From NCBI GenBank assembly GCA_965237905.1, contig OZ250172.1, forward strand, positions 768,001 through 832,000: a DNA stretch of 64,000 nucleotides. Direction: 5' to 3'. The DNA comes from Nitrospinaceae bacterium (GTDB lineage: Bacteria; Nitrospinota; Nitrospinia; Nitrospinales; Nitrospinaceae). Below, piece by piece: positions 8,010 to 25,351 of this stretch (position 1 is the first letter of the stretch; every line of letters begins with the position of its first letter). A program made the position numbers and the translations under genes. The notes beneath the pieces are model-generated. The model saw only the letters and a list, made by a program, of their open reading frames with translations. It was not told where the DNA came from and did not search any database.

Positions 8010-10526
8010 ATGAATTTCCGAGCACACCCCACTGCCAAATTGATCGGGACTCTGGCTCTCTGTCTGACTTTGACCGGAGCGATGCCCTCCCAAGCCGCGA
8101 CCCAGATCTCGGTAACGGAAGAACTGGTCGCCACCCTGGCCCTTCCGGAAAACAAGATCGATCTGGCCGAAACGCTCCTTTTGATCTCGCGTCATTGGGA
8201 CCCCCGGCTGGACACGGCCCCTCTCAAGAAAACGCTGGGCCGGTTGACCGAATCGGCCCGCAGTCAACTCAAGGGCAATCCCTCCCCGAAGCAAACCGTT
8301 GAAATTCTGCGCAAGGTCATTCATGAGGAGGGGAAATACCGTTACACCGAGGCGCTGGACCCGGCGGGCATGCCGGTCAATCCGGCTGAATTGTTTCTGC
8401 ACGGGCTGTTACAGACCCACCGGGGTTATTGCATGAACCTGTCCCTGCTGTATCTCATCCTCGCCGAGCGATTGAACCTGCCGTTGGTCGGGGTGCCTCT
8501 GCCGAATCATTTTTTCGTGCGTTACGACTCGTCGGAGTACCGGGTGAATATCGAAGCGACGGAAGGGGGAACAGCGTTTCCCGATTCGTTTTACGAACAA
8601 CGGTTTGGTGTGGCTAAGGGTTCGAAATACTTCCTGACCAATCTGGGTAAGAAACAAACGCTGGGGGCCTACTTCTCGAATGTCGGGCTGGTCATGTACC
8701 GCGCGGCCAAACCTCAGATCGCTATTTTTTATCTGGAGCAGTCAGCCAGCATCAATCCGCAATCCATTGACGCGCTCAACAACCTGGGTAACATCTACTC
8801 GGAATTAAAACAACACGACAAATCCATCCACGCATACGAGCGGGCCTTGAAGGCCGACCCTGGAAATTTTTCCACATTGTCCAACCTGGGACTGGCCTAT
8901 ATGGAAACGAATGCTCTGGAAAAAGCCGAAGAGACATTCCTGCAGGCAACGCAGATCAATCCTCGGTATCATCTGGCACATGAAATGCTGACGCGGATTT
9001 ACATGCAACGGAAAAAGTTTGCGAGCGCACTTCTCCATTTGAAAATCATGAAACGCCTGCAACCGGGACGGCTCCTCACCGAATTGAACATCGGAACCGT
9101 GCTCCTGGAAATGGGTCAGGCGGAACTGGCCCTGAAATACTTCGAAGACCTGCAAAGCCGCTACCCGCAGGCCATCGAGGTCAACCAACGTATAGCGGAG
9201 ACGCACTACCGGCAGAAGGAGTACCCAAAAGCGATCGTTCAATATGAGTTCATCATCGAGCGCGCTCCCCGGTTCATTGAAAATTACATTCAACTGGGGT
9301 GGATTCATTACCAAATGGGAAGCATCGCGAAGGCTATCGAAGTCACCCGGCAGGGCCTTCGGTCCAGCCCACAGGCGAACCGGCTCACCACTCTGGCCCA
9401 CATGAACCTGGGGTTTTATCATGTGCTTGAAAAAAAATTCGGTGCCGCCGAGAAGTGGTACCAGAAAGCACTCAACGCCGAAGACCCGAAAGCGGTCGAT
9501 GCGATGATCGAGGATTTGAGCGGTGCCTTCAAAAATTATCCCGGTATTCCTGAAATGAATTATTTCGGCGGGTGGATTTTATTCCAAGGCGGCCAGAAGG
9601 ATAAAGCCCGACAATGGCTCGACCGTTACCTGGCCCAAAGTCCCAAAGGCCCTTTTGCCGGAAAAGCGCGGAGCTTTCTGAAAAAAGTTGCGCTTTCGGT
9701 GCCGGAAGACATGATTCTGGTTCCCAAGGGATTTTTCATCATGGGAGCCAACGGGCACGGCGATGACGAAGCTCCGGAACACAAGGTTTACCTGGACTCC
9801 TACTTTATCGATAAATATGAAGTGACGGCAGCTCAGTTCGCCACGTTTTTAAACGATGTCAAAACCTTCAAGGAATTTTATAAGGACAGCAAATTCGGCA
9901 TGCTGATACTGGAAAAGGATTTCAGGCCCCGTAAAGGTTTGGAATCCTATCCTATCAACAACGTGACCTGGTTCGGAGCGGCGGCCTTCTGCAAATGGAA
10001 GAACAAGCGCCTGCCCACCGAAGCGGAATGGGAAAAAGCGGCGCGTGGAACCGGGGGAAACTTCTTCCCATGGGGAAACGATCCGATCGCCCCGCAAAAA
10101 GCCCGGTATCTACAGGACTGGACCGAAGAGATCGCCCACCGCGTGATGGTCCCGGTCAATTCCATGCCGGAGGGAAAAAGCTCATTTGGGCTGTTTCACA
10201 TGCTGGGTAACGTCAAAGAATGGGTGGACGACTGGTATGATCGGGAGTATTATAAGGAACAAAATCACAAGTTAAATCCAAAGGGACAGATCGGGGGGGA
10301 GTTCAAAGTCCTCAAAGGCGGGTCGTGGAGAGACCTCAGGTCCTTTGTTTACGCCTCCTTCCGGAACAACAGCTACCCGAATACGGCACTGGACGATTAT
10401 GGGTTCCGGTGCACTCAGGATGGGCTGGAAAGTTCCGCCCCCAAGCGGCTGACTTCTCTGGAACATTTATTCATTCCAGCACGGCTGGAACATACGCCTC
10501 AGGGAGGCTCAGGACACAATCCATGA
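8010..10526 (+). CDS. Exported transglutaminase-like (SirB1/Transglut_core2) + TPR + FGE-sulfatase (SUMF1-like) fusion
   Basis: RGYCMNLS...PNHFFVRY...NIEAT; multiple TPRs; RLPTEAEWEKAARG, GNVKEW, VLKGGSW, GFRC. Confidence 0.85.
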   Translation: MNFRAHPTAKLIGTLALCLTLTGAMPSQAATQISVTEELVATLALPENKIDLAETLLLISRHWDPRLDTAPLKKTLGRLTESARSQLKGNPSPKQTVEILRKVIHEEGKYRYTEALDPAGMPVNPAELFLHGLLQTHRGYCMNLSLLYLILAERLNLPLVGVPLPNHFFVRYDSSEYRVNIEATEGGTAFPDSFYEQRFGVAKGSKYFLTNLGKKQTLGAYFSNVGLVMYRAAKPQIAIFYLEQSASINPQSIDALNNLGNIYSELKQHDKSIHAYERALKADPGNFSTLSNLGLAYMETNALEKAEETFLQATQINPRYHLAHEMLTRIYMQRKKFASALLHLKIMKRLQPGRLLTELNIGTVLLEMGQAELALKYFEDLQSRYPQAIEVNQRIAETHYRQKEYPKAIVQYEFIIERAPRFIENYIQLGWIHYQMGSIAKAIEVTRQGLRSSPQANRLTTLAHMNLGFYHVLEKKFGAAEKWYQKALNAEDPKAVDAMIEDLSGAFKNYPGIPEMNYFGGWILFQGGQKDKARQWLDRYLAQSPKGPFAGKARSFLKKVALSVPEDMILVPKGFFIMGANGHGDDEAPEHKVYLDSYFIDKYEVTAAQFATFLNDVKTFKEFYKDSKFGMLILEKDFRPRKGLESYPINNVTWFGAAAFCKWKNKRLPTEAEWEKAARGTGGNFFPWGNDPIAPQKARYLQDWTEEIAHRVMVPVNSMPEGKSSFGLFHMLGNVKEWVDDWYDREYYKEQNHKLNPKGQIGGEFKVLKGGSWRDLRSFVYASFRNNSYPNTALDDYGFRCTQDGLESSAPKRLTSLEHLFIPARLEHTPQGGSGHNP

Positions 10527-11379: not shown

Positions 11380-11748
11380 TTATTCTTTTTTGTTTTGCGA
11401 CCGGAATTTTTTCAAGGCCTTGATCAATTCCATCTGGGACACCCAGCCCTGTGACACCAGAATCTCCCCCAACAGGCGGTTGGTGTGCGTTTGCCGCTCC
11501 AGTAACGCCTCCACCTGTTCCTGACTCAGGTACTCCATCTCAACGGCCAGTTTTCCGAAGTTTTTAGATTTTTCTTCCGGTTTCCTCTGACGGGACAGAA
11601 TCCGAAACAACTGCTTGTTGTCGATCAATCCTTTTTGCAGAGCCAACTGTCCCAGCGGCACCCGGTCGGTTTTCTGGATTTCCAGTGCACGGGCCAGGTC
11701 CTTTTCCTGAATGATACTCTGCGCTACAAGATATTCTCCAAAAATCAC
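11380..11748 (-). CDS. Stand-alone MshEN-like (T2SSE_N) four-repeat protein
   Basis: Four 24-aa xLGxxLxxxGxIxxxxLxxxLxxQ-like repeats; GTG start 15 nt after the cyclase stop. Confidence 0.75.
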   Translation of the reverse strand: MIFGEYLVAQSIIQEKDLARALEIQKTDRVPLGQLALQKGLIDNKQLFRILSRQRKPEEKSKNFGKLAVEMEYLSQEQVEALLERQTHTNRLLGEILVSQGWVSQMELIKALKKFRSQNKKE

Positions 11749-11763
11749 AGACAGAAGTCCTTT

Positions 11764-13995
11764 CTACTTGGTCCGCATGGCAAAAACACCGTCCCAATCC
11801 GGGGGCGGCGGATGATACTGAAACGTGATACACCGTTCGAAATAAGTCAGCGACGGGCCGTCGTCTTCGTACAGATTCAACGCGTTTTCAAAACAGGTGA
11901 TGCCCTCCTCCCACCGCTGGTTTTTATAATGGTCCAGACCCTCCTGGAAATGAGGAAGAATGAGGCGGATGTGGTCTTCCATCTCCCCCTTACGCCCGAG
12001 CAGTTCGTAAATCTTGATAGGCTCTTTTTTACCGACCACACGGATGGAGTCCAACTCGCGCGCTTCGATATCGTTCTTCGCCAACTCGTAGGTGAATTCG
12101 CTGAGCATGGTGTACGTCTGGTATTGCTTGTTAGCGCCCTCGAGCCGTGCCGCCACGTTCACCGGATCGCCTATCATGGTGTAATCGAACCGGTTCTCGG
12201 AACCCATGTTGCCCACCGTCACCTGCCCGGTATTGATACCGATGCGCATGAATAATTCATGCCGGCCCTTTCTTTTCCAGATGTTCCGCAACTCAGCCAG
12301 CCGTTTCTGCATATCCAGCGCGGCGTAGCAGGTTCGGGTGGCATGATCTTTAAAATCGATGGGCGCGCCGAAAAACGCAATGATGGCGTCGCCTTCGAAC
12401 TTGTCAACCGTCCCTTCGTATTGCATGACAATGTCGGTCATCTCCGTTAAATACTCATTCAATAAAATCACCAGTTCGCTCGCGGTCAACTGTTCTGAAA
12501 TCGAGGAGAAATTCGCCGCGTCCGAGAAAAAAGCCGTCAATACTTTGTCTTCTCCTCCCAGGTTCAAGAGCTTGGGATTTTCCACCAACTGATCCACCAC
12601 CGCCGGAGCCAGGTACTGGCTGAATGCGCTTTTGATAAACCGTTTTTCCCGTTCTTCAAATGTGAAGCGGTATAACGTAATTCCAAAATAAACCAGGAAT
12701 TGGGAAAACAAGGGGGATACCGTATGAACCCACAATCCCTGCCGGGTAAATAATATATAATCGCAGACTAGGTATCCCCCCACTCCCACCACCAGCAAGA
12801 TGGCGGTGCCAACGGCTTTGAAATAAAGGGCGACCAAACCCAACAAAATACCGGTCACCAGAATCATCGTCATATCCAGAACGGGGACCCAGGATGGGCG
12901 CTTGAGAAAATCCTGTTGAAGGATGTTTTCAATCATATTGGCGTGTACCTCCACCCCAGGATAAAGAGGACCATAAGGGGTGGTATGCAAGTCATGCAGG
13001 GCGGGGGCGGTACCGCCGACCAGGACAATTTTATCTTTCAACTGGATCGACCCCACAGTGCCATCGATGACGTCGGATGCGGACAAATAGCTAAACGTCT
13101 GTTTTGGTCCGTAATAATTCACCAGAAAATTCCCTTCCTCCGTAACGGGAATCGGGGAATCCCCCAACCGTATTTCCCCCACGCGGTGAGGAAAAATACG
13201 AACGACGGCACTCAGCTTGGTGGCTTCCCGCAACAATTGCAGACTGAATGGCGGAAATACCGCCTCCTTATGCATGCGCACCATGGGCATAAAGCGAATA
13301 ACCCCGTCGCGCCCCGGCCAAAACGACACGTAACCCGTGCTGTTGGCGGCATCCATCAACGAAGGCAGACTGAGGCCTACCGCATAAATGGGTCGCAGAA
13401 AATCGGGGGTAATCAATTGGTCGCTGAACTGCACCATTGAGTACTGGGAAAAATCCAGCAGTTCGAACTCCTTGGGTCCCATCATCGCCGCAGAATCTTC
13501 AGCCGCCTGCTCTGCTGTGGCGTACACAAAATAACCCAGTACCGTCCGCTCCGACCGGCGGATCGCATCGGCAAACCTGGAATCTGAATCACTTATTTCT
13601 TCCAGCAAATTCACCAGTTTCTTCCGGCTCATGCCAGACACGACTTTCTTCGCAATTTCATTTTTAACTTTATCGAGAGGAATGTAGGCTTCCTTTTCGG
13701 GGAAAAAAAAGTCGAAACCGATCACCGCCGCACCGGATTCAGTCAACTTGTCCACCAGCGTCGCCAGTCGGGTACGCGGCCAGGGCCAGCGTCCTTCCCG
13801 TTTCAAGCTGTGCTCATCAATGGCGACGATCACCACCTGGCCGGAAACCGGCCGCGTGCCCCGCAGGGACATTTTAAAATCGTAAGCCTTGGATTCCAGT
13901 AGCTCAAAAAGGGGAAGATTGAGGGAATAAATGAAAAGGGAAAACAGGGTGATCAACACAGAGACTGTAAAGGCGTTCAGCCAGCGAATTTTCAT
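11764..13995 (-). CDS. CHASE2-domain class III adenylate cyclase with C-terminal TPR-like tail
   Basis: CHASE2 motifs (IVAIDE, GRWPWPR, PGVEVHA), three TMs, FSDAANFS, DKFEGDA, YTMIGDPVNVAARLE (Lys and Thr indicate ATP specificity). Confidence 0.92.
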   Translation of the reverse strand: MKIRWLNAFTVSVLITLFSLFIYSLNLPLFELLESKAYDFKMSLRGTRPVSGQVVIVAIDEHSLKREGRWPWPRTRLATLVDKLTESGAAVIGFDFFFPEKEAYIPLDKVKNEIAKKVVSGMSRKKLVNLLEEISDSDSRFADAIRRSERTVLGYFVYATAEQAAEDSAAMMGPKEFELLDFSQYSMVQFSDQLITPDFLRPIYAVGLSLPSLMDAANSTGYVSFWPGRDGVIRFMPMVRMHKEAVFPPFSLQLLREATKLSAVVRIFPHRVGEIRLGDSPIPVTEEGNFLVNYYGPKQTFSYLSASDVIDGTVGSIQLKDKIVLVGGTAPALHDLHTTPYGPLYPGVEVHANMIENILQQDFLKRPSWVPVLDMTMILVTGILLGLVALYFKAVGTAILLVVGVGGYLVCDYILFTRQGLWVHTVSPLFSQFLVYFGITLYRFTFEEREKRFIKSAFSQYLAPAVVDQLVENPKLLNLGGEDKVLTAFFSDAANFSSISEQLTASELVILLNEYLTEMTDIVMQYEGTVDKFEGDAIIAFFGAPIDFKDHATRTCYAALDMQKRLAELRNIWKRKGRHELFMRIGINTGQVTVGNMGSENRFDYTMIGDPVNVAARLEGANKQYQTYTMLSEFTYELAKNDIEARELDSIRVVGKKEPIKIYELLGRKGEMEDHIRLILPHFQEGLDHYKNQRWEEGITCFENALNLYEDDGPSLTYFERCITFQYHPPPPDWDGVFAMRTK

Positions 13996-14080
13996 GGGAG
14001 AATTTTAACACAAGGGGAATTGACAAGGAAAAAGTCAGGTGAAGAAAAACCACCGGTCAAGCGGATTCGATTGCCCTGAA

Positions 14081-15676
14081 TCAACAGCCGCCTGAACCAC
14101 CGTTCTGGAAAAAATCGGTGAGAAAGGAGCTCAAGGACCCCTGCTGGACGGAATTGGTGTCGATGGAAGGCAAAGGCTGGGACCTGCCGCCTCCGCCGGT
14201 TCCGTTACCATTCAGTATCAAATCACGGGTTTCACCGAACGACGACTCATCGGCATTGATATTGACTGCACTTATATCGATATCGCGTGCTGAAACGATG
14301 GCCACGTCGGGAGCCACGTTGAAATCGCCTTTGCCATTCCCTTCGCTGTCTGCCACCGCAATAAAATCGGTCTTGGTGGTGGTGACGTCGGCATTCACGT
14401 TGATATCGTTGACAGCCAATAACTTCAAAGTCGGGAAGGCAGAAGCCATTTCTACAAAATTAATGTTCGCGCCGGACTCTAAGATCACAGAGTCTGTAAT
14501 GCCGTCTGTATCGTTCTCGGTTATGCCTTTTACGTTGATGTCGCCGTCCGTTTTCAGTATCAGATTCTCTGCGACGATATGGCGAATATCGTTGCTACCC
14601 ACACTTCCATGGGGATTATTGCCGGACTCGATATTCAGATCGCCACCGTCCGCGAGAGTGAAGAGGACGTCGCCGGTGCCGCTGTTCAGATAGCCCTTCA
14701 GGTCCAGATGATTGGCTACGATATCGATGTCCCCATTGTTGGTCGACAGGGAATTGTTTGCTGATACTGCCACCGCCTCCGCTGTGATAAAGACCTCGGA
14801 GGCATCCAGCGTTCCGGAAACCTCAACATTGCCGCCTCCGCCGGACAAAATGATCTTGCCGTCTTTCTGCTTGACTGTTTGGGCTTCGATGATTCCGGAA
14901 TGATTGATTACGTTGCTGATCACGTCGCCGGCAGATCTCGCTGTCAGTAAAACCTGTCCACCGTTGGCGCGAATGAGTCCGGAATTGTTGATTTGATCAT
15001 AGAGCACATTGCCCTTTGCGTCGGCCACCACGAAACTGATCAGGCTGTCGCCATTGAAATCCAGGGTCGCCGCCGTGCCGGAGGCCAGGACCACGGATCC
15101 CAGGTCCGCCACGATAATGGAACCGTTATTTTCCACCGCCGGAGCGGCCAGGCCGACATAACGGGCGGCATTTATGGTTCCGTTATTGATGACAGCGACC
15201 AGGCGGTTCGGGTCTTGTGAAAACTGATAATTGCCTTTCAGAAAATCGTCGTTGGAGATGTTAAGCGTGGTCGCCAGCAGGCCATGGACATCCACCTTGG
15301 CGTTCTGTCCGAATACCACTCCGGAGGGATTGCTCAGAAACACCTGACCGTTGGCAGAAAGTTTGCCGAGAATGATGCTGGGGTCCACGCCGATCACCCG
15401 ATTGAGCGCCACCGAGTTGATGTCGGGTTGCTTGAACGTGACCGATTCCTTCGAACCGATGCTGAATCCCTGCCAGTTGGTGATCAACTGTTGGGTATTC
15501 TGCTGAATCACCATATCCTGCTTTGAGGGTTGTTCGATACTGCCGGTTCCGGAGACAATCTCCCCGCCATTGGGCAGGGCATTCACCCATCCGGGTGTTA
15601 CCGCCCACAGGCCCACCAAAAGGCTGATGGCCAGCCGGTTCAATCTGCGGGTTTGTTTCGGTTCCAATTTGCGCAT
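14081..15676 (-). CDS. Short TpsA exoprotein with filamentous-haemagglutinin N-terminal (TPS) domain
   Basis: Signal peptide, NWQGFSIG, LNRV...GKLSANGQVFLSNPSGVVFG, beta-helix-like repeats; 531 aa, ends GGSGGC. Confidence 0.9.
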   Translation of the reverse strand: MRKLEPKQTRRLNRLAISLLVGLWAVTPGWVNALPNGGEIVSGTGSIEQPSKQDMVIQQNTQQLITNWQGFSIGSKESVTFKQPDINSVALNRVIGVDPSIILGKLSANGQVFLSNPSGVVFGQNAKVDVHGLLATTLNISNDDFLKGNYQFSQDPNRLVAVINNGTINAARYVGLAAPAVENNGSIIVADLGSVVLASGTAATLDFNGDSLISFVVADAKGNVLYDQINNSGLIRANGGQVLLTARSAGDVISNVINHSGIIEAQTVKQKDGKIILSGGGGNVEVSGTLDASEVFITAEAVAVSANNSLSTNNGDIDIVANHLDLKGYLNSGTGDVLFTLADGGDLNIESGNNPHGSVGSNDIRHIVAENLILKTDGDINVKGITENDTDGITDSVILESGANINFVEMASAFPTLKLLAVNDINVNADVTTTKTDFIAVADSEGNGKGDFNVAPDVAIVSARDIDISAVNINADESSFGETRDLILNGNGTGGGGRSQPLPSIDTNSVQQGSLSSFLTDFFQNGGSGGC

Positions 15677-15701
15677 GATGCACTATCCTCTGGATCCTGC
15701 C

Positions 15702-16505
15702 TCAGCCTGAGCACGAATCCGATTCATCTTCCTCGAATAAATCATATTCTTCCTTTAAGGCATCCGTCACAATGGAGCCTTGCCGGGGTTTTTCACGGTA
15801 ACGCGAACCCACCGCACCCATGACCACCTGCTGGATCAGGCTCTGCTCGGAACCCGTCAAAGCTTCCGGTTGCGTCGGCGGTTTGCCTTCTTCAACGACC
15901 GTTTTCATCATCTGCCCGACCATCACGTCCCCAATAACGGTGGGGTCGGCATTGAGAACCCGGATAGCGCCCGCTTGATTGGCAACCAGCGTTTTGAGTT
16001 GCGAAACGCTTAAATACCCCTGGGTACCGCGCGCCGCCACATTGGCGGTGGGGGAAAGGATTTTGAAATGGGATTTGGGATGCTTCTGTTCCTTATTGAC
16101 AATATACATGGAAATGCCGTGGCCGATGCTGATCACACCCTGACGAAGCTTCTCCTTGGCATCAAACAGATAGGACGAAATCTTCATCCGGGAGTTGGGG
16201 CCGAGGGCCATCAGGCTGGAATCTTCAAACAAAATACGCAGGCGGCTCTTGCGGCCGGTCCGAAACTCATCGCTGGCATACACCATCTGCTTGGGTTGCA
16301 ACTTCTGCCAGGGGGTCAATGACACTGGAACCACCTGGCCGGGTTGGGCATTGGCTACCGATTCCTCACCACCCGGCAGATATTCCGCGCTTCCAATAAT
16401 GGCGATAATCTTGCCCACCGGTTTTTTCTCCGCCCAGGCATTCGCCGGAAGAATCAAAATCACCACCGCCAGCAAGGCCAATCCTTTTCCTAAAAGCTTG
16501 ATCAT
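15702..16505 (-). CDS. Periplasmic FecR-domain protein
   Basis: Signal peptide (ANAWA), FRTGRKSRLRILFEDSSLMALGPNS, SPTANVAARGT. Confidence 0.85.
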   Translation of the reverse strand: MIKLLGKGLALLAVVILILPANAWAEKKPVGKIIAIIGSAEYLPGGEESVANAQPGQVVPVSLTPWQKLQPKQMVYASDEFRTGRKSRLRILFEDSSLMALGPNSRMKISSYLFDAKEKLRQGVISIGHGISMYIVNKEQKHPKSHFKILSPTANVAARGTQGYLSVSQLKTLVANQAGAIRVLNADPTVIGDVMVGQMMKTVVEEGKPPTQPEALTGSEQSLIQQVVMGAVGSRYREKPRQGSIVTDALKEEYDLFEEDESDSCSG

Positions 16506-16726
16506 CCCTTTACTCCTGCAAATTTCAATATTCCTGCATTGATGGAAACATTATATGCGTAAATGTAAATAAATGGAGGAGAAATATAGGAAATCCACAA
16601 AAATACCCCAAAAGGGGTTGTTTTTTATGTCTTTAGAACAATAAAAACTTTAGTCTTTTTTAGATATTTCGGGCAAATCCAGGAAAAGCTTGAACTCAAA
16701 TTTACAAAGAGAGTCTGAAATCAGGG

Positions 16727-18478
16727 CTAGAAGGAAATCATGCCATTGAGATAGAGCGTGTTAGAGGATCCATCCGAGGGCTCTGGACCCCCAAATGCGG
16801 GGAATCCGTAGGCGAGGGAAAAGCTGACGGCAGGGTAGTTTTCCCCCAAGGGAGGTATATTCAATCGCACTCCAAGGCCCACACCATTTAACTCCCGGTC
16901 ACTCTCACCGGCTTGCCGGTTTTTGATAAACACCTGGCCGTGGTCCAGAAAAGCAAAAAAGGATAGCACCTGGTCCAGTTGTATTGTCCGGGGATTCTTG
17001 AGCACTGTCACTTTGAAGGGAAAGGGAATCACCAACTCCGTGGATATGTAATACCCGTTGTCCCCTGCCGCTTCCGCCAGCGGGTATCCCCGCACCGATC
17101 CGAACCCACCGATCGCGAACTGATCCGGAGAAAGCACCCTTTTGGAAGCGACTTGGCCTTTAGCCTTCACCGTCAAATAGGTTTTCCCAATGAAAGCGGA
17201 CTGGTATCGTGTGACATCGAAACTGGAAAGCAAGGCATCGCCGCGCCCCTGAAACCGTGAATTCAGCGGATCGGAAACGTCACGTTCGCTGAAGCCCTGT
17301 TGCAGGCGCAGGGTATAAAACGTGCGAGCGCGTAGCGGGTCCTTGAAGAAACCCCCAACCGCAAAATAGACATCGCGCAATTTGTCGTCACTGGAGGAGG
17401 ATCCTGCAAGATCGTTTTCAAAGTTGCGAATCTCCCCACCCAGGCTCAAATAAAATTCAGAGCTACGAGTCCGGATCAGGGAATGACTTATATCCATGGT
17501 GAATATGTTGGCCTTACCGCCGGCGTTCAACACCGCCAGATCACCGCCCAAATTGAATTCGGTAAAAATGTACGACAGAGTGGCGGTAGTGCCATAGGGA
17601 CCAATGGGGATCGAATAGGAGGGATTGATGAAATCCTGATCCTCGTTGGACTTGACCCCGCGTATGGACAAGCGGTCACCCAACAATAACAGGCTTCCGG
17701 CTTCTGCCGTCAAACCGTACCGTTGCTCTCCGGTAAACCGGGAACCGAAATTGTCCGCGTCGAAAGCAATGCGGTAAGGTCGGGATTCCTCCGTCTGTAA
17801 CGTCAAGTCCGATGTGCCGAACACCTCCCCCGGTTTCAGGACGGCTTTTACATTCAATCCCTGTATGGCGTTCAATCCCAGAAGATATTTTTCCAGGGTG
17901 CTTTCCTTGAGAGCCGGGTCATCCTGCAGCGGTTTCAACCGTGCCAGGATTTCCTCCCGCTTGAATTTCTCGTTCCCCTCCACTTCAATTTTACCCAACT
18001 TGCCCTCAACCACTTGAATGGTTACGGTCCCGTTATCAATTTCCTGCTCCGGAACATAGACGCGGGTTAAGATATATCCCTTCGTGGTGTACTCAAGATT
18101 GATTTCCTGTGCGATGAGGTGGAGGATGCCGAGAGTCACTTCCAACCCGTCGCCCACCTCCAGAATAGGCGCCAGAGTGGCGTCATCGATCAACGTGTTG
18201 CCAGTCACTTCGATCTTTTTGACGATGAATTTAGGACCCGCCCCCGGGTCGACCACGGTACGGCTGTCCTTGATGGAAAGAGGCGGGAGTTCTTCTTCGG
18301 GAGGTTGGAGCTGGGGCTGGGACTGCTCCAGCGCTTTTTGGCCCACGCCGGATTCTCCCGCAGGGGGTACCGAAACCTGAGCCTGCAGGAGCGAAGGAAA
18401 CACCACCGCACTCCCAAAAGAACTAAGAGCAATGAATAGCAGACAGAGTTTGAGCGTGGTCCTGTTCGATTGGATTAT
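16727..18478 (-). CDS. TpsB (ShlB/FhaC/HecB) outer-membrane transporter; start uncertain
   Basis: Two POTRA domains, DNFGSRFTG, GGFGSVRGY motif, C-terminal Phe; frame stays open to 18478 and encodes a signal peptide upstream of the first GTG (18406). Confidence 0.9.
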   Translation of the reverse strand: MIQSNRTTLKLCLLFIALSSFGSAVVFPSLLQAQVSVPPAGESGVGQKALEQSQPQLQPPEEELPPLSIKDSRTVVDPGAGPKFIVKKIEVTGNTLIDDATLAPILEVGDGLEVTLGILHLIAQEINLEYTTKGYILTRVYVPEQEIDNGTVTIQVVEGKLGKIEVEGNEKFKREEILARLKPLQDDPALKESTLEKYLLGLNAIQGLNVKAVLKPGEVFGTSDLTLQTEESRPYRIAFDADNFGSRFTGEQRYGLTAEAGSLLLLGDRLSIRGVKSNEDQDFINPSYSIPIGPYGTTATLSYIFTEFNLGGDLAVLNAGGKANIFTMDISHSLIRTRSSEFYLSLGGEIRNFENDLAGSSSSDDKLRDVYFAVGGFFKDPLRARTFYTLRLQQGFSERDVSDPLNSRFQGRGDALLSSFDVTRYQSAFIGKTYLTVKAKGQVASKRVLSPDQFAIGGFGSVRGYPLAEAAGDNGYYISTELVIPFPFKVTVLKNPRTIQLDQVLSFFAFLDHGQVFIKNRQAGESDRELNGVGLGVRLNIPPLGENYPAVSFSLAYGFPAFGGPEPSDGSSNTLYLNGMISF

Positions 18479-18699: not shown

Positions 18700-19794
18700 T
18701 TATTCGATAGGCGAGTTGTTGCTAACTTTACAGGTTCCGTTGGCCGCCCATTTTCCGGGGATGGGTTCCCGGCAATCGGGGCAGGACCCGTTTTCGAGGG
18801 CGTTGGCGAGAACCTGAAATCCGTAACGTTCGATCAGGGTTTTTCCGCATTGCGGACACATCGTGTTTTCGGTATCGCCCACATGGCCGGGGCGGTTGCC
18901 GGAATAAACGAATTTGAGACCCGCCTTCACTCCTATTGTTCGGGCACGCAGGAGGGTTGCCACCGGGGTGCTGTCCCGGTCGGTCATCTTGTAAAGCGGA
19001 TGAAAGCCGGTGACGTGCCACGGGATGTCCTCGGAAACGGAGGCGACAAACTCGGCCATCTGAGTCAATTCTTCATCGGAATCATTGTAATCGGGAATCA
19101 CCAGCGTTACGATCTCCGTCCAGAATCCCATGGCATACACCTGCCGAATGGTTTCCAGAACCTCTTCAAAGTTCCCGCCCAGCTTCAAATACTTTTTCCG
19201 GTCGAAACATTTGAGGTCGATCTTAAACAGATCCAGCCACGGTTGCACGTACTCCAGCACTTCCGGTGTACCGTGGCCGTTGGAGACATAACCGGTGACC
19301 AATCCTCTGCTCTTGGCTTCCTTGAACACCTCGACCGCCCATTCGGAGGTGATCAACGGTTCGTTATACGTGGAAACTACGGTTCGGGAACCCTGCTGTT
19401 CGGCGAGGTCGCATAGGCCTTGAGCAGTTATGGCGTCAAAATCAAGCGTGGCGGCATCATCGCGAAGCGTCTGGGAGGTGAACCAGTTCTGGCAGTAGGC
19501 GCAACGGAAATCGCACCCCAGCATGCCGAAACTCATTGCCTGGGTTCCGGGCAGGGCATGAAAAAACGGTTTCTTTTCGATGGGATCGTTGTGAATGCCG
19601 GCGGCGTAGTTGAAAGGAACCTTCAACACGCCATCCGAATCGCTGTACCGGACCTTGCAGACTCCCCGTTGGCCGGGGCGCAATTGGCAACGGTGCCCAC
19701 AGGCCGTACAAATCAGCGAACCTTTTTCAAGAGGAATGAACAGTTCGCCGGGGCGGGTGTTTTCATCCAGTAAAGTTTGAGTTGTGGGTGTCAT
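18700..19794 (-). CDS. amrS: AmmeMemoRadiSam system radical SAM enzyme
   Basis: CTACGHRC, DPIEKKPFFH, GCDFRCAYCQN, C-terminal CPQC/CPDC. Confidence 0.88.
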   Translation of the reverse strand: MTPTTQTLLDENTRPGELFIPLEKGSLICTACGHRCQLRPGQRGVCKVRYSDSDGVLKVPFNYAAGIHNDPIEKKPFFHALPGTQAMSFGMLGCDFRCAYCQNWFTSQTLRDDAATLDFDAITAQGLCDLAEQQGSRTVVSTYNEPLITSEWAVEVFKEAKSRGLVTGYVSNGHGTPEVLEYVQPWLDLFKIDLKCFDRKKYLKLGGNFEEVLETIRQVYAMGFWTEIVTLVIPDYNDSDEELTQMAEFVASVSEDIPWHVTGFHPLYKMTDRDSTPVATLLRARTIGVKAGLKFVYSGNRPGHVGDTENTMCPQCGKTLIERYGFQVLANALENGSCPDCREPIPGKWAANGTCKVSNNSPIE

Positions 19795-19853
19795 AACCCA
19801 GCTCCTTGCCCTTTCCTGACTCACCGAGAACGGCAACTGTTTTCAAACCGAAT

Positions 19854-20306
19854 TTATTCGGTTGTTATATCTTTGTTCTTTTCCAGGGCACCAATCATGG
19901 AATGCCAGGACAAGCTTGCACATTTGATCCGCGAGGGGAATTCCCGGATTCCTTTGAACAAAGCCAGCTTGCCCAGATGATGCTCCTGCTCGTCCGGGTC
20001 CATTTCTCCCAGAACCATTTTATGAAACTCTTCGAAGATCTCTTTGGATTCGCCGACTTTCTTGCCTTTCAGAAAACCGGTCATCAGCGACGAACTGGCT
20101 TTAGAAATCGCACAACCCGAACCCATAAAGCTGACCTCTTCAATCACATCATCGGCATTGATCTTCAAATACACCGTATAATCGTCGCCGCACAACGGAT
20201 TGAACCCGTGACAAAAATGCGTGGCTTCCGGCATTTCACGGAAGTTTCGCGGCTTCTTGTTGTGATCCAGGATCACCTGTTGGTACAGCTCGTTATCGTA
20301 TGACAT
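19854..20306 (-). CDS. sufU: SUF system NifU-like sulfur-transfer protein
   Basis: LYQQVILDH, NPLCGD, GCAIS, RIKCA. Confidence 0.92.
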   Translation of the reverse strand: MSYDNELYQQVILDHNKKPRNFREMPEATHFCHGFNPLCGDDYTVYLKINADDVIEEVSFMGSGCAISKASSSLMTGFLKGKKVGESKEIFEEFHKMVLGEMDPDEQEHHLGKLALFKGIREFPSRIKCASLSWHSMIGALEKNKDITTE

Positions 20307-20394
20307 CCAAAAATTCTCTCTATAAATAATATAGTCCCGTGTTCGTCATTATAAAAGACAAAGGAGGGATATCCAACCTAATCGATACGGAGTG

Positions 20395-21648
20395 TCAGGA
20401 GAACAGCTTGATGGCCCGGCGAATACTGGCGGCCAAGGCATCCAGCTCTTCATATTTATTGTAAAACGAGGCCGAAGCGCGGGAAGTCGCGGGCACACCG
20501 AACCGTTTCATAGTCGGTTGCGCGCAATGATGTCCGCCCCGAACCGCGATGCCGTCCTGGTCCAGCAGAGTCACCACATCATGCGGATGAATAACGTCGA
20601 TATGGAAGGACAGGATACTGGCTTTGTGGGCGGCGGTGCCGATGATGTTCAACCCGTCGATTTCGGACAGTACGCGTGTGCCGTATTCCAACAGCGCGTG
20701 TTCGTATTCGGCAATTTTATCGAGGCCGATTTCTTGAAGATAATCGACTGCTTCGCCGAGACCCATCACTTGGGTAATTGCCGGCGTTCCCGCTTCGAAT
20801 CGGGCGGGCGGATCAGCATACAGGGTTTTCTCAATCGTCACTTGGCGAATCATGTCGCCGCCGGTAACGTAAGGCGGCATCTCCTGCAACACGTCGTATT
20901 TTCCGAATAAACCGCCGACGCCGCTGGGCCCATACATCTTGTGACCGGAGAAGGTGTAGAAATCGCAGTCGATATCCTGCACATCGATTTTTATATGCGG
21001 GGTGCTTTGCGCTCCGTCGATCAGCACCTTGGCGCCCGCCTCGTGCGCGAGCCGGGTGATCTCTTTTATGGGATTCACCGTCCCGAGAGCGTTGGACACA
21101 TGATTGACTGACACGATTCGCGTTTTGGGCGACAGGAGTTTTTCATATTCTTCCATAATGAGCTCACCGCGGTCGTTGACCGGAATAACTTTGAGGTGTG
21201 CCCCTCTGTCCTGGCACAACACTTGCCAGGGCACGGTATTGGCATGATGCTCGATATTGGAGATGATGATTTCATCCCCTTCTTTCACAAACGCCTTGCC
21301 GAAGCTGTACGCCACGAGGTTGATGGCCTGAGTGGTGCCGCTGGTGAAGATGATTTCCTTTTTGTCCGCCGCGTTGAACAACCCGGCGACTTTTTGCCGG
21401 ACGTCCTCGAACATCTGCGTGGCATGTTCGCTTAATTTGTACGCCCCCCGGCGGACGGTGCCGTATTCTTCCGAGTCGAACTGGCGGACCTTCTCGATGA
21501 CGCGCCGCGGCTTCTGCGTGGTGGCGGCATTATCCAGATACACCAGCGGTTTGCCGTGAACCTTTTGCGACAACACAGGGAAATCGGCGCGAATTTTATC
21601 GACATCGAAAGGAGGTTTGGCAGTGGTCAGGGTATCGGACTCAGGCAT
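20395..21648 (-). CDS. sufS: Cysteine desulfurase
   Basis: YLDNAATTQKP, FSGHKMYGP, RGGHHCAQP. Confidence 0.95.
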   Translation of the reverse strand: MPESDTLTTAKPPFDVDKIRADFPVLSQKVHGKPLVYLDNAATTQKPRRVIEKVRQFDSEEYGTVRRGAYKLSEHATQMFEDVRQKVAGLFNAADKKEIIFTSGTTQAINLVAYSFGKAFVKEGDEIIISNIEHHANTVPWQVLCQDRGAHLKVIPVNDRGELIMEEYEKLLSPKTRIVSVNHVSNALGTVNPIKEITRLAHEAGAKVLIDGAQSTPHIKIDVQDIDCDFYTFSGHKMYGPSGVGGLFGKYDVLQEMPPYVTGGDMIRQVTIEKTLYADPPARFEAGTPAITQVMGLGEAVDYLQEIGLDKIAEYEHALLEYGTRVLSEIDGLNIIGTAAHKASILSFHIDVIHPHDVVTLLDQDGIAVRGGHHCAQPTMKRFGVPATSRASASFYNKYEELDALAASIRRAIKLFS

Positions 21649-22966
21649 GTTTCGCCTCCAATTTTTTTAAAAGTACTTCATTCAGATCCGTTACCACGTC
21701 CGGAAACGGAATCGTCTGAATCAGGCTGTCCACAAAACTGGTGGTGAGCAGGGATTTGGCCAATTCCTTGGACAAGCCGCGGGTCTTCAGATAAAACAAC
21801 TGGTCTTCGTCAATTTGCCCGACGGTCGTCCCGTGGGTGCATTTGACGTCGTCCGCGAAAATCATCAGGTTCGGCTTGTTGTCCGCATGCGCCTCGTCCG
21901 ACAGCATGAGGTTGTTGATCAACTGATCCGAGTTGGTCAATTGCGCCCCCTTATCAACAATGACGGTGCCGTCGACACTGGACCGTCCTTTATCGTTGAT
22001 GACGTTTTTGAACAACTGGTTGCTGGAGCAATGCGGCGCTTCGTGATGAATCCGGATGAAATTATGCACCTGTTCCTGATTCACCAAAACAGAGGCTCCA
22101 CTCAGGTGCAATTCCGCGCCTTCCTCTTTCAGGCGCACTTCGTAATGGTGCCGCGTCAGCCGGTTTCCCGAAGAACCATTTCTGCCGAAGAAGCGTGCGT
22201 CGCGATGCAACTGCACCCGCGTCTTTGAACAATGCCAGGACTCGGGGTCATCTTTCTGCACCTGGGTGTAGGTGACACCCGCGCCATCCTTTACAATGAA
22301 GTCATTGACCGCGTTGATGAAATAATTTTCCCGCGTTCCGGCATAGGTGACGATCATCTTGAGCTCCGCCGTTTCCCCCAATCGTATTACCAAACGAGGA
22401 TGGGAGGTCACCGGGGCCGATGCGGAACCGGTCGAAACATAAAGAAACTGCACGGGACTCTCAAACGTGGCCTTGGCGGGAATATCAATCCATACGCCAT
22501 GATGCACAAACGCGCTATTGATCGCGGCGAACACATCGTTTTCATTCTCCAGCGAGTCCAGCAGAGTTTGTTTGATTGCATCGTCGGCCACGGCTTCGGA
22601 CAGGCATTGTATTTTAAATGAATCACCGAGACCAGACAGATCCGAAAGATTTTCCTGAAACGCGCCATTCACGAATACCATCACGCTGTTTTTGCAGGCG
22701 GGATAAACTTTGCTTTGTATCCAAGCGGTATCCACCGGACCGTCGACAGCCAGTTCAAACGAGGTGCCAGCCAACTCGTGCGTATTGACGAAGGTATACA
22801 TCTCATGTTTTTTGTGGGGAAACTTCAACAACTCGAACCGCTCGATACCCGCCTGGTTGACGGGACGCAGGGAGGCCTTGGCTCGGTCTGCTTCCAGAAA
22901 CTTCTTATGGAGCGCGAGCACCGCTGTTTCCGGAGCTTCCGTTTTTTTGACTGCGGATTCGGACAT
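21641..22966 (-). CDS. sufD: Fe-S cluster assembly protein SufD
   Basis: KPNLMIFADDVKCTHG, FYLKTRGL; operon position. Confidence 0.93.
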   Translation of the reverse strand: MSESAVKKTEAPETAVLALHKKFLEADRAKASLRPVNQAGIERFELLKFPHKKHEMYTFVNTHELAGTSFELAVDGPVDTAWIQSKVYPACKNSVMVFVNGAFQENLSDLSGLGDSFKIQCLSEAVADDAIKQTLLDSLENENDVFAAINSAFVHHGVWIDIPAKATFESPVQFLYVSTGSASAPVTSHPRLVIRLGETAELKMIVTYAGTRENYFINAVNDFIVKDGAGVTYTQVQKDDPESWHCSKTRVQLHRDARFFGRNGSSGNRLTRHHYEVRLKEEGAELHLSGASVLVNQEQVHNFIRIHHEAPHCSSNQLFKNVINDKGRSSVDGTVIVDKGAQLTNSDQLINNLMLSDEAHADNKPNLMIFADDVKCTHGTTVGQIDEDQLFYLKTRGLSKELAKSLLTTSFVDSLIQTIPFPDVVTDLNEVLLKKLEAKHA

Positions 22967-22975
22967 AATATTCTC

Positions 22976-23731
22976 TTACTTCGCCGGAGCGGTGACCCAG
23001 TCGTAACCCTGCGCCTCCAACTCGAGGGCCAGATCCTTGCCGCCGGACTTGACAATGGCGCCGCCGCTGAACACATGCACGAAATGCGGCTCGATATAAT
23101 TGAGCAGTCGCTGGTAATGGGTGATCAGGATTAACGCGTTGTTCTTGTTGCTGAGCTTGTTGACGCCTTCCGCGACCACTTTCAGCGCGTCGATGTCCAG
23201 ACCGGAGTCGGTTTCATCCAGAACAGATAATTTGGGACTGAGCACCGCCATCTGCAAAATTTCATTCTTCTTTTTCTCGCCGCCGGAGAAGCCCTCGTTC
23301 AAAAACCGGTCCTTGTATTTTTTATCCATGCCGACCAACTTCATTTTTTCGTCGAGGATTTCATCGAAGTCCAGAGGATCAACCTCTTCTTCCCCTTTGT
23401 GTACCAGTTTAGCGTTGTACGCCATGCGCAGAAACTCGGCGTTGTTAACGCCGGGAATTTCCACGGGATATTGGAACCCCATAAAGATGCCGGCCAGGGC
23501 TCGGTCCTCCGCGTCCATCTCCAGCAGATCTTTTCCGTTGTAGGTGATGCTTCCCTGCGTTACGACGTAGGACGGGTGACCCACCAGCACTTTCGCCAGC
23601 GTACTTTTACCAGAACCGTTGGGTCCCATGATGGCGTGAACTTCTCCAGCGTTCACCGTTAACGAAACGCCCGTGACGATTTCGGTCCCTTCGAACCCCG
23701 CGTGCAAATCTTTGATTTCGAGTAATGACAT
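22976..23731 (-). CDS. sufC: Fe-S assembly ABC ATPase
   Basis: GPNGSGKST, FQYPVEIPG, GFSGGEKK, LDETDSGLDIDA; start at ATG 23731. Confidence 0.95.
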   Translation of the reverse strand: MSLLEIKDLHAGFEGTEIVTGVSLTVNAGEVHAIMGPNGSGKSTLAKVLVGHPSYVVTQGSITYNGKDLLEMDAEDRALAGIFMGFQYPVEIPGVNNAEFLRMAYNAKLVHKGEEEVDPLDFDEILDEKMKLVGMDKKYKDRFLNEGFSGGEKKKNEILQMAVLSPKLSVLDETDSGLDIDALKVVAEGVNKLSNKNNALILITHYQRLLNYIEPHFVHVFSGGAIVKSGGKDLALELEAQGYDWVTAPAK

Positions 23732-23805
23732 AATTTTATTCAGCCTATGAATTGTTATGTAGTTGCTCGATTTATCGAGCTCTTTATACCACCCCAAGCT
23801 ATAAC

Positions 23806-23827
23806 AAAAACGCCCCATGAATGGGGC
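23806..23827 (-). terminator. Terminator-like hairpin between sufB and sufC
   Basis: GCCCCA-TTCA-TGGGGC followed by GTTTTT on the minus strand. Confidence 0.45.
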
Positions 23828-23887
23828 AACTACTTTTTTCAGGTGGGATTTATCCTGTTATCCTGTCTAACTTTGTTTTGCTTTTAT

Positions 23888-25351
23888 CTATCCGACGCTG
23901 TTTTCGAGCTTGAGCGTCAACAGCTTCTGCGCTTCCACCGCGAACTCCATGGGAAGCTGCTTGAACACTTCCTTACAGAATCCGTTGATGACGGCGGTAA
24001 TCGCATTCTCCCTCGAGATGCCCCTCTGCTCAAAATAGAACAACTGTTCCTCGCTGATCTTGGAAGTCGACGCCTCGTGTTCCAGATGAGCGGAACTGTT
24101 GGCCGTTTCGATATAGGGGAACGTATGGGCACTGCTCTGATCGCCCACCAGCATGCTGTCGCACTGCGTATAGTTGCGGGCATTGGACGCGCCCTTGCTC
24201 ACCTTGACCTGCCCGCGGTAGCTGTTACTGGAGTGATCGGCGCAAATTCCCTTGGAGATGATACTGGATTTGGTGTTTTTACCGATGTGGATCATCTTGG
24301 TGCCGGTATCGGCCTGCATGTATCCGTTGGTCAGCGCCACCGAGTAAAACTCGCCCTGGGTATTGTCGCCCTGAAGGATACAGCTGGGATATTTCCAGGT
24401 GATGGCGGAACCGGTTTCCACCTGCGTCCATGAAATTTTGGAGTTGTCCCCGGCACACTTGCCGCGCTTGGTGACGAAATTATAGATACCGCCCTTGCCC
24501 GTTTCCGGATCACCGGCGTACCAGTTCTGCACGGTGCTGTATTTGATCTCGGCGTTGTCGAGCGTCACCAGTTCCACGACTGCAGCGTGCAATTGATTGG
24601 TATCGAACTGCGGCGCAGTACAGCCTTCAAGATAGGACACATAACTGTTTTCGGCACATATAATCAGGGTACGCTCGAACTGTCCGGTTTCTTCCGTATT
24701 GATGCGGAAGTAGGTGGACAACTCCATCGGTGAAATCGTGTCCGGCGGAATGTAAACGAATGAACCGTCGGTGAACACGGCGCTGTTGAGCGCGGCGTAA
24801 TAATTGTCCCCGATCGGAACGACGGTACCCAGATACTCTTCGACCAGCTCGGGATATTCCTGCAATGCCTCGGAAATGGGACAAAAGATAATGCCCACCT
24901 CCATCAGTTTCTTCTTGTGGGTGGTGGCGACACTGACGCTGTCGAACACCGCGTCAACGGCAACATTGGACAGGCGCTTCTGTTCATCCAGCGGAATGCC
25001 CAGCTTCTCGAAGGTGCGGAGCAGTTCCGGGTCGACCTCGTCGAGGCTTTCAATTGTTTTCTTTTTCTTCGGCGCGGAGTAGTAGGAGATATCCTGGAAA
25101 TCGATCTTCGGGTAACGCACGTTCGGCCAGGCCGGTTCCTTCATGGTCAACCATTTCCGGTAAGCCTTGAGCCGGAAATCGAGCATGAACTGCGGCTCTT
25201 TTTTCTTCAGGGAAATGGCGCGGACCACATCTTCGTTCAGGCCTTTGGGCAGGGTATCAGTTTCAATATCCGTCGTGAACCCGTACTTGTATTCATTTTT
25301 CTCCAACACCTCGTCAAGGCTGGTGGTTTTGGAGCTCGTTTCATTCGTCAT
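23888..25351 (-). CDS. sufB: Fe-S cluster assembly protein SufB
   Basis: [43 protein letters not shown]. Confidence 0.97.

Follow-up and report, generated by a model that had tools for sequence, protein, structure and literature searches.

The window analysed here, a stretch of 64,000 nucleotides from the genome of a Nitrospinaceae bacterium (phylum Nitrospinota; contig OZ250172.1, positions 768,001 to 832,000), carries between positions 11380 and 18478 a block of five genes, which encode the outer-membrane transporter (TpsB) and the secreted partner (TpsA) of a two-partner secretion (TPS) system, a FecR-like protein, a CHASE2 class III adenylate cyclase and a MshEN-repeat protein. We propose that TpsA is a disulfide-tethered filament, plugged by the FecR-like protein, and that this assembly is coupled to the CHASE2 cyclase; to this reading as a whole, which is built from sequence comparisons, we would give an even chance of being right. 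Within it, the putative tether is well supported by sequence logic, and the putative partnership of the FecR-like protein with CHASE2 is well supported by gene context. The proposal revises an earlier, sequence-only reading of the same DNA, in which the TPS pair served as a contact or mechanical antenna whose state FecR relayed to CHASE2 to control cyclic AMP (cAMP). Nitrospinota are major marine nitrite oxidisers, and the block offers a first candidate surface-sensing path in this phylum.

Results

The case for a tether lies at the C-termini of two neighbouring gene products. The FecR-like protein (15702..16505, minus strand; 267 amino acids (aa), comprising a predicted signal peptide, a PF04773 core and an acidic linker) has a single cysteine, C265 (codon 15711..15713, minus strand), which follows the linker, lies three residues from the C-terminus and is retained in all 21 aligned homologues, the linker length of which differs by 200 residues. 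In 81 of 86 FecR-like homologues a cysteine lies among the final 12 residues, against a background of 9 of 105 distant FecR-like representatives and of 150 of the 1535 long open reading frames (ORFs) of this genome (9.8%). TpsA (14081..15676, minus strand; 531 aa) likewise contains one cysteine only, C531 (codon 14084..14086, minus strand), which is its last residue and stands behind an amphipathic segment. Such a lone terminal cysteine is present in all 30 complete Nitrospinota TpsAs that have this FecR in their cluster and in none of the 17 that do not, and the three TpsAs of unresolved FecR context also end in one. These 50 C-termini were sorted by hand, with TpsAs cut by a contig end and duplicates from the same genome left out; four of the tails come from a second ORF past a break, and the arrangement at one locus (L106) is convergent. 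A Fisher test of the association returns P = 4e-13, a value that we set aside because kin are not independent.

The remaining TpsA cysteines occur in close pairs only, and neither TpsB beyond its signal region nor the CHASE2 domain of the block contains any cysteine, which leaves C265 and C531 as each other's sole evident partner. A two-cysteine hook takes the place of the lone cysteine in a TpsA of the same clade that has no FecR (L054), and in a control none of seven Nitrospinota FecR-like paralogues, found at six CHASE2 loci without TPS genes, has a lone tail cysteine. The genome encodes two DsbA-like proteins. Judged from these sequence patterns, C531 and C265 probably pair. The link between TpsA and the FecR-like protein is likely to be covalent, through two lone terminal cysteines that the earlier reading had missed.

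Two other kinds of tail were seen in passing. A protein of 303 aa (P0117) joins a partial FecR-like core to a TpsA-like tail with a lone end cysteine and is either a natural fusion or a chimera. Many distant FecR-like proteins (P0121, P0132, P0142, P0149, P0176, P0178, P0184, P0200, P0203-P0205 and P0225) combine a Pro-rich linker with an end of the form T-P-V-x-(I/V)-x-(I/V/L)-x-F-(P); being beta-strand-like, this end is perhaps another hook into an outer-membrane barrel.

The cyclase (11764..13995, minus strand; 743 aa) is composed of a transmembrane segment, a CHASE2 domain, a transmembrane bundle, a catalytic domain and TPR repeats. Genes for FecR-like proteins are tied to CHASE2 genes across phyla, and this gene context supports that part of the earlier reading, with the correction that the protein is not the anti-sigma FecR. 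All eight plasmid CHASE2 loci that were examined (from 50 records, picked for taxonomic spread) have a Pfam FecR domain at most two genes away, which may stand bare, be combined with OmpA, form a fusion with a TbpB-like barrel that follows a TPR gene, or belong to a 1221-aa FecR-TPR protein. Among Planctomycetota, a FecR-like gene is found at 8 of 20 CHASE2 loci, none of them with TPS genes. The distant FecR-like paralogues of Nitrospinota lie within 10 kb of a CHASE2 gene in 32 of 39 cases, where chance would give about 1%, and, counted from the other side, a FecR-like match lies near 44 of the 104 CHASE2 matches in Nitrospinota.

The outer-membrane part of such loci changes. In one genome (G001), a cyclase 73% identical to that of the window adjoins a fused FecR-TPR-(barrel) protein and there is no TPS block. 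On the pSymB record of Sinorhizobium meliloti 1021, which is unannotated, a 1219-aa homologue of the 1221-aa protein, with Pfam FecR and TPR matches, directly precedes a CHASE2 cyclase; from its size, its place and the barrel range given in PMC7529298 we infer that it is NsrA. Its N-terminal domain aligns with the FecR-like family of the window at a probability of 93.7% (E 1.8e-7). The swap between a TPS block and an NsrA-like fusion argues for the FecR-like domain as the constant partner of the cyclase, with an exchangeable outer-membrane part, and on this gene context we regard it as very probable that the FecR-like protein partners CHASE2. Two Nitrospinota loci, L267 (7193-10597), which has the 73% identical cyclase, and L268 (11327-14902), encode NsrA-like FecR-TPR-barrel proteins beside close paralogues of the window cyclase.

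The FecR-like protein of the window has no plasmid match at E 1e-3, two plasmid loci picked by TpsB contain neither a FecR nor a CHASE2 gene, no locus among viral contigs was found for P0138, a distant FecR with a cysteine near its end, and the CHASE2 part of the cyclase has no match in the PDB; a protein-cluster search with the homologue P0009 retrieved only FecR-labelled clusters. FecR-like domains were further seen fused to TbpB/fHbp-like barrels, which are Slam-type cargo (P0129, P0185 and L132:5835-7802, the last with a TPR gene upstream), and to multiheme cytochrome c domains (P0152, P0164, P0193 and P0196), and one Planctomycetota FecR-like protein that adjoins a CHASE2 cyclase has a tail with 16 cysteines (L143:10514-11551).

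Within the order, TpsA matches occur in 42 of 61 genomes, and 40 regions around such matches were examined. The order tpsB-fecR-tpsA-cyclase was found in three families, often between identical flanking genes, and in a fourth family the genus g9 has fecR-tpsA clusters that lack the cyclase; the cyclase is also not adjacent at L055 and L091. The block is thus conserved across Nitrospinota, and the co-conservation on which the sequence-only reading depended holds. Two of its details fared less well. A short TpsA does not define the system, as the partners of this FecR span 530 to 3785 aa. The MshEN member is real both as a motif and as a gene, and it lies 3' of the cyclase in many Nitrospinota blocks (the search for it was confined to this phylum), but it is accessory, being absent from the intact blocks L040-L042, L045 and L052.

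Extreme and damaged TpsAs were noted along the way. Two loci carry internal tpsA deletions that keep both ends (L049:651-1350 and L050:1117-2802; 122 and 142 aa), with near-identical breakpoints in two lineages; tpsB is damaged in L050 and L066. We considered the mini-TpsAs as retained signalling stubs and dropped the idea, because an equivalent deletion affects the L049 cyclase, and the short forms of L049, L050 and L066 look like decay or misassembly. At the other end of the range, giant TpsAs of the genus g9 (L110-L115 and L126) reach 3500-8800 aa and share a ..(T/K)SF tail without cysteine, and a frame of 21,643 codons (G603:C1, from 311492 onward) ends in a two-cysteine hook. Nitrospinota-type fecR-tpsA contigs also turned up in bins titled Rhodopirellula and Ca. 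Ruthturnera (L106 in G061 and L104 in G062) and are likely misbinned.

The lone-cysteine pattern recurs in a second phylum with different motifs, less cleanly and with exceptions. In 300 genomes of that phylum (to which G062 belongs), TpsB identities are 34% at most, and among the best 40 of 160 TpsB-match regions two contain FecR-like and CHASE2 genes, both with a tail cysteine in the FecR. None of the 21 complete TpsA ORFs in the other TpsB regions ends in a lone cysteine, and three have two-cysteine hooks. In the family of genome G288, the FecR-like gene is matched in 49 of 61 genomes; at the 30 best loci the FecR has a cysteine in its last 20 residues in 29 cases, 26 of them in the form F/I/L-C-I/V/M, and a CHASE2 gene lies within 1.5 kb in 17. 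Seven TpsAs of this family are complete and encoded no more than about 7 kb from fecR, and four of them end in a lone cysteine, with three more unreadable; in G288 itself three of seven TpsAs are of the lone-cysteine kind, all far from its single fecR. The gene order can differ too, being tpsA-cyclase-fecR at L240. The Nitrospinota and second-phylum lineages may share ancestry.

The idea that the FecR-like domain acts as a retention plug comes from its distant kin. A profile of 58 such proteins matches PDB 5IX9 (E 6.6e-9), the periplasmic domain by which the MpIBP adhesin is kept from slipping out of its pore (PMC5550230), and 28 of the 58 match the LapA retention model NF033682 weakly (E<=0.01, below the curated level), as compared with six that match anti-sigma FecR. 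The Nitrospinota FecR profile has no match in the PDB, and PF06035, the family of LapG-type proteases, has none in the genome.

The layout of the block agrees with what had been read from the letters: five co-oriented minus-strand genes, with gaps of 25, 85 and 15 nt among the last four. The gap between tpsB and the FecR-like gene is 221 nt long (16506..16726), AT-rich and endowed with a small hairpin (16605-16618), and it may harbour a candidate internal promoter for the last four genes; scans for promoters and terminators returned numbers at the level of shuffled sequence (5 against 5.6 and 10 against 10.1). The tpsB gene (16727..18478, minus strand) encodes 583 aa with the Pfam domains POTRA_2 and ShlB, which are expected of an outer-membrane TPS transporter, if it starts at the ATA at 18476-18478. 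That start, which had been chosen before, is right because six close relatives have ATG at the same position; the ATA could represent a weak alternative start, a mutation that lowers TpsB or an assembly error. The FecR-like protein matches PF04773 at E 2e-10. In TpsA, the TPS domain (E 1e-37), which among solved structures is nearest to EtpA, HxuA and HMW1, is the sole match in Pfam and NCBIfam, in keeping with the earlier statement that no toxin domain is present; it is followed by about 200 aa of acidic predicted beta-helix, a Gly/Pro linker, an amphipathic tail helix and the terminal cysteine. The conserved part of that tail (residues 513-525; 14102..14140, minus strand) is predicted, by analogy with the topology of HMW1, HxuA and CdrA, to sit in or under the TpsB pore. 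The cyclase matches CHASE2 (E 1e-65), Guanylate_cyc and TPR. The roles of class III cyclase residues are established, and D492, K532, D536, T606, N613, R617 and K656 align with CyaB and are at least 90% conserved across 78 homologues, so that the catalytic site, as had been claimed, is intact. The last gene (11380..11748, minus strand) encodes a stand-alone MshEN-repeat protein of 122 aa that scores 91.7 bits, at a cut-off of 38, with the MshE-type cyclic di-GMP (c-di-GMP) motif NF053729 and is on this motif predicted to be a c-di-GMP receptor.

The genome, a single contig that is 96% complete, has one match each for FecR, CHASE2, ShlB and TpsA, all in this block. By inspection, no ORF for an extracytoplasmic function (ECF) sigma factor or a TonB receptor is evident in the 5-25 kb part of the window, again as first described. 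Just downstream and convergent with the block lies a gene (8010-10526, plus strand) for an 838-aa transglutaminase-like, TPR and FGE-sulfatase protein, which is kept in this place in several families. Upstream on the same strand (18700-25351, minus strand) are a radical SAM gene, which we take to be AmmeMemoRadiSam-like, and the suf operon for Fe-S clusters, a placement that is conserved in many relatives.

Discussion

In the model that we favour, TpsA would be exported by TpsB N-terminus first as a surface filament, and its C-terminus would stay in the periplasm, as in HMW1, HxuA and CdrA. There, C531 and C265 would form an inter-chain hook that takes the place of the two-cysteine hook, and the folded FecR-like domain, being too bulky for the barrel, would serve as a retention plug. 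As a protein that leaves N-terminus first, TpsA could not carry a plug at its N-terminus, a difficulty that a disulfide to a separate periplasmic protein would resolve. The core of the FecR-like protein would contact CHASE2, and this contact, and with it the output of cAMP, would be altered by binding or pulling, or when the filament is fully exported or lost. Taken from filament to cAMP, this chain of steps could, on sequence grounds, as easily fail as hold. CyaD1 deleted for CHASE2 is constitutive (PMC5498481), which suggests that the signal would consist in a release of inhibition.

Further downstream, cAMP would feed enzymes that combine cyclic nucleotide-binding (cNMP), PAS, GGDEF and EAL domains, and the MshEN protein would read the resulting c-di-GMP. 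The genome encodes two such cNMP-PAS-GGDEF-EAL proteins and three stand-alone cNMP domains, and the placement of cNMP-PAS-GGDEF-EAL genes between FecR-like and CHASE2 genes at two loci (L270 and L271) lends some plausibility, though a weak one, to a route from cAMP through c-di-GMP to MshEN, which we advance only tentatively. The two other class III cyclases of the genome are fused to TPR and HD (HD_5) domains (L264:528-2612 and L265:868-2895, genome G000) and are possibly bifunctional cyclase-phosphohydrolases.

A number of observations weigh against this model. With regard to the cyclase, none of the 15 close FecR matches from genus g9, nor that of G052, has a CHASE2 gene within 10 kb; in the TpsA-linked FecR clade as a whole CHASE2 is this close in 16 of 39 cases (16 of 24 outside g9, where six of the misses are at contig ends, and 0 of 15 within it), and the query used finds no FecR-like gene within 10 kb of 60 of the 104 CHASE2 matches in Nitrospinota. 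With regard to TpsA, in one block (L099) the gene is missing from its place between fecR and cyclase, and the order reads tpsB-fecR-cyclase-MshEN. With regard to the cysteines, the TpsAs were grouped by hand and one locus (L126) is without upstream DNA; the FecR-plus-cysteine label shifts only two to three times on a tree of TPS domains, and the comparison of 30 with 17 TpsAs therefore overstates independence. In the second lineage, three of the seven TpsAs encoded in cis retain a two-cysteine hook and one of nine TpsAs from genomes without a FecR match has a lone cysteine. A cysteine-tailed FecR-like protein from Planctomycetota (G074, locus L153) led us to predict a TpsA in the same genome, and the prediction failed, as no TPS domain was found there. 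With regard to the plug, the window protein itself matches neither 5IX9 nor the LapA model, and a mixed profile reaches E 0.067, so that the kinship with plugs is only indirect and serves as a lead.

Some of these observations would be explained if the block did no more than anchor an adhesin, with the disulfide-linked FecR-like protein holding TpsA and the cyclase sensing something else under mere co-regulation, for instance with cAMP switching the adhesin on. Clusters of FecR and TpsA without a cyclase are indeed common (all 15 in g9, G052 and L091), a retention plug known from an adhesin is among the matches of the domain's distant relatives, and in S. meliloti the FecR-domain gene smc02177 was reported not to be needed for perception of the plant signal (PMC5498481). 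However, CHASE2 genes have FecR-like neighbours at loci that lack any adhesin or TPS gene, some of these neighbours encoding bare domains of 150-275 aa; one cyclase subfamily pairs either with this block or with an NsrA-like fusion; and the g9 genomes retain four to six CHASE2 genes at other positions. We thus consider a pure anchor unlikely, if the strongest of the alternatives.

Somewhat less likely still is a monitor of assembly or redox state, in which the FecR-like protein would catch the TpsA tail and report the success of export and disulfide formation to CHASE2 and no outside contact would be sensed. Such a function would fit the conservation of tail and cysteine in TpsAs whose exposed part ranges from about 500 to 3785 aa, and also the persistence of the block without tpsA at L099, or with tpsB and most of tpsA deleted and fecR and cyclase intact at L050. 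Against it stand the decayed or misassembled look of the short forms, given that the mini-TpsA of L049 accompanies an equally deleted cyclase, and the response of NsrA-CyaK to an external protein (PMC7529298).

Alternatively, the lone cysteines might not pair with each other, serving homodimers, metal binding or another modification, and their co-occurrence would then reflect shared ancestry. This is consistent with the few independent gains and losses in Nitrospinota, with exceptions in both directions (a cysteine-tailed FecR without TPS and a lone-cysteine TpsA without a FecR match) and with the presence of two TpsAs per FecR gene at L116, L121 and L123. Yet the pattern is repeated in a second phylum, with other flanking motifs and with lone- and two-cysteine tails that alternate, and no such lone cysteine is present in FecR-like paralogues that are not near TPS genes; we hold this to be slightly less probable again than a monitor. 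That the genes are unrelated chance neighbours, as the absence of MshEN from some blocks and the varying gene order might suggest, is most improbable, since single-copy genes all gathered in one block argue for a grouping beyond chance and the block recurs in four families of the order, with a rebuilt version in a second phylum.

If the tethered and plugged filament is coupled to CHASE2 as we propose, TPS adhesins would gain, in the inter-chain cysteine hook, a new mode of anchoring, and TPS systems would be added to the inputs of signalling. CHASE2 is widespread and has no established ligand in the literature that we searched; the block names a candidate protein partner, and C265 and C531 provide two single-codon handles on the question. 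It also offers a model for how NsrA signals across the periplasm. In a wider version, which appears to us doubtful on present sequence comparisons, the FecR-like domain might serve CHASE2 sensors in general as their protein ligand and be related to adhesin plugs. It would be hung under varied outer-membrane parts, such as NsrA-type barrels, Slam/TbpB-like cargo, OmpA/LysM or, via an inter-chain disulfide, a TpsA filament, and CHASE2 cyclases would then report whether a surface structure is under force or occupied. On that view the block would be a two-partner secretion pair refashioned as a covalently wired touch sensor.

Comparison with known systems

A TpsB with POTRA and a ShlB/FhaC barrel, together with a TpsA that has an N-terminal TPS domain, places the secretion pair in type Vb. 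A C-terminal toxin or pore domain, as in the TpsAs of contact-dependent growth inhibition or the cytolysins, is not found in the 531 aa of TpsA. With FecI-FecR-FecA the block has the Pfam domain PF04773 in common, and it differs in that the FecR-like protein has an N-terminus resembling a cleavable signal peptide, no cytoplasmic anti-sigma part and no match to NF007296; by its sequence it belongs to a distinct PF04773 group that is related to the N-termini of NsrA-like proteins. Operons with a FecR-domain gene by a CHASE2 sensor and without an ECF sigma factor have been reported, namely the LysM-FecR and CHASE2 kinase of Burkholderia BiofilmReg (PMC5192318) and the CHASE2 cyclase, FecR and TPR clusters of Campylobacterota (PMC9239204), and both are described, in the parts of these papers available, without a TPS pair or a cysteine tether.

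In HMW1, HxuA and CdrA, the C-terminus of TpsA remains periplasmic and is secured by a disulfide within the chain (PMC5422565, PMC7616799, bioRxiv 10.1101/198937). TpsA of the window resembles them in its TPS domain and in a cysteine-based C-terminal tail that is predicted to be held in TpsB; their hook, however, consists of two cysteines in one chain, whereas the window tail has C531 only and the neighbouring periplasmic protein offers the other. Across the two-partner-secretion literature, to the extent available, only work on PlpD turned up for an intermolecular disulfide of a TpsA. A plug beneath an outer-membrane pore, as proposed here from matches of distant kin, would be the likeness to MpIBP (5IX9) and LapA (PMC5550230, bioRxiv 10.1101/198937), in which the module is fused to the N-terminus of an adhesin of a type I secretion system, in contrast to the separate, cyclase-tied module of the window with its predicted C-terminal disulfide. 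No report of a TPS system joined to FecR or CHASE2, of an inter-chain TpsA hook, or of a retention module linked to FecR was found in the literature searched, which was mostly open-access and did not include supplements, and it is possible that the FecR domain of NsrA, or the block, has been mentioned before in the literature on NsrA.

The closest parallel is NsrA-CyaK of S. meliloti, for which cAMP signalling from an outer-membrane barrel to a CHASE2 cyclase has been published (PMC7529298, PMC13001267). Here as there, genes that lie together supply a barrel component in the outer membrane, a domain of family PF04773 and a class III cyclase with CHASE2. Unlike that system, the window locus encodes no single-chain FecR-TPR-barrel receptor and has in its place a separate FecR-like protein of 267 aa with a tail cysteine, a TpsB barrel and a secreted beta-helical TpsA, and no Crp/Clr-type regulator was seen among the five of six cNMP proteins that were scanned. 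Taken together, the block works like NsrA-CyaK plus a cysteine hook, and it is a member of neither the one known kind of system nor the other.

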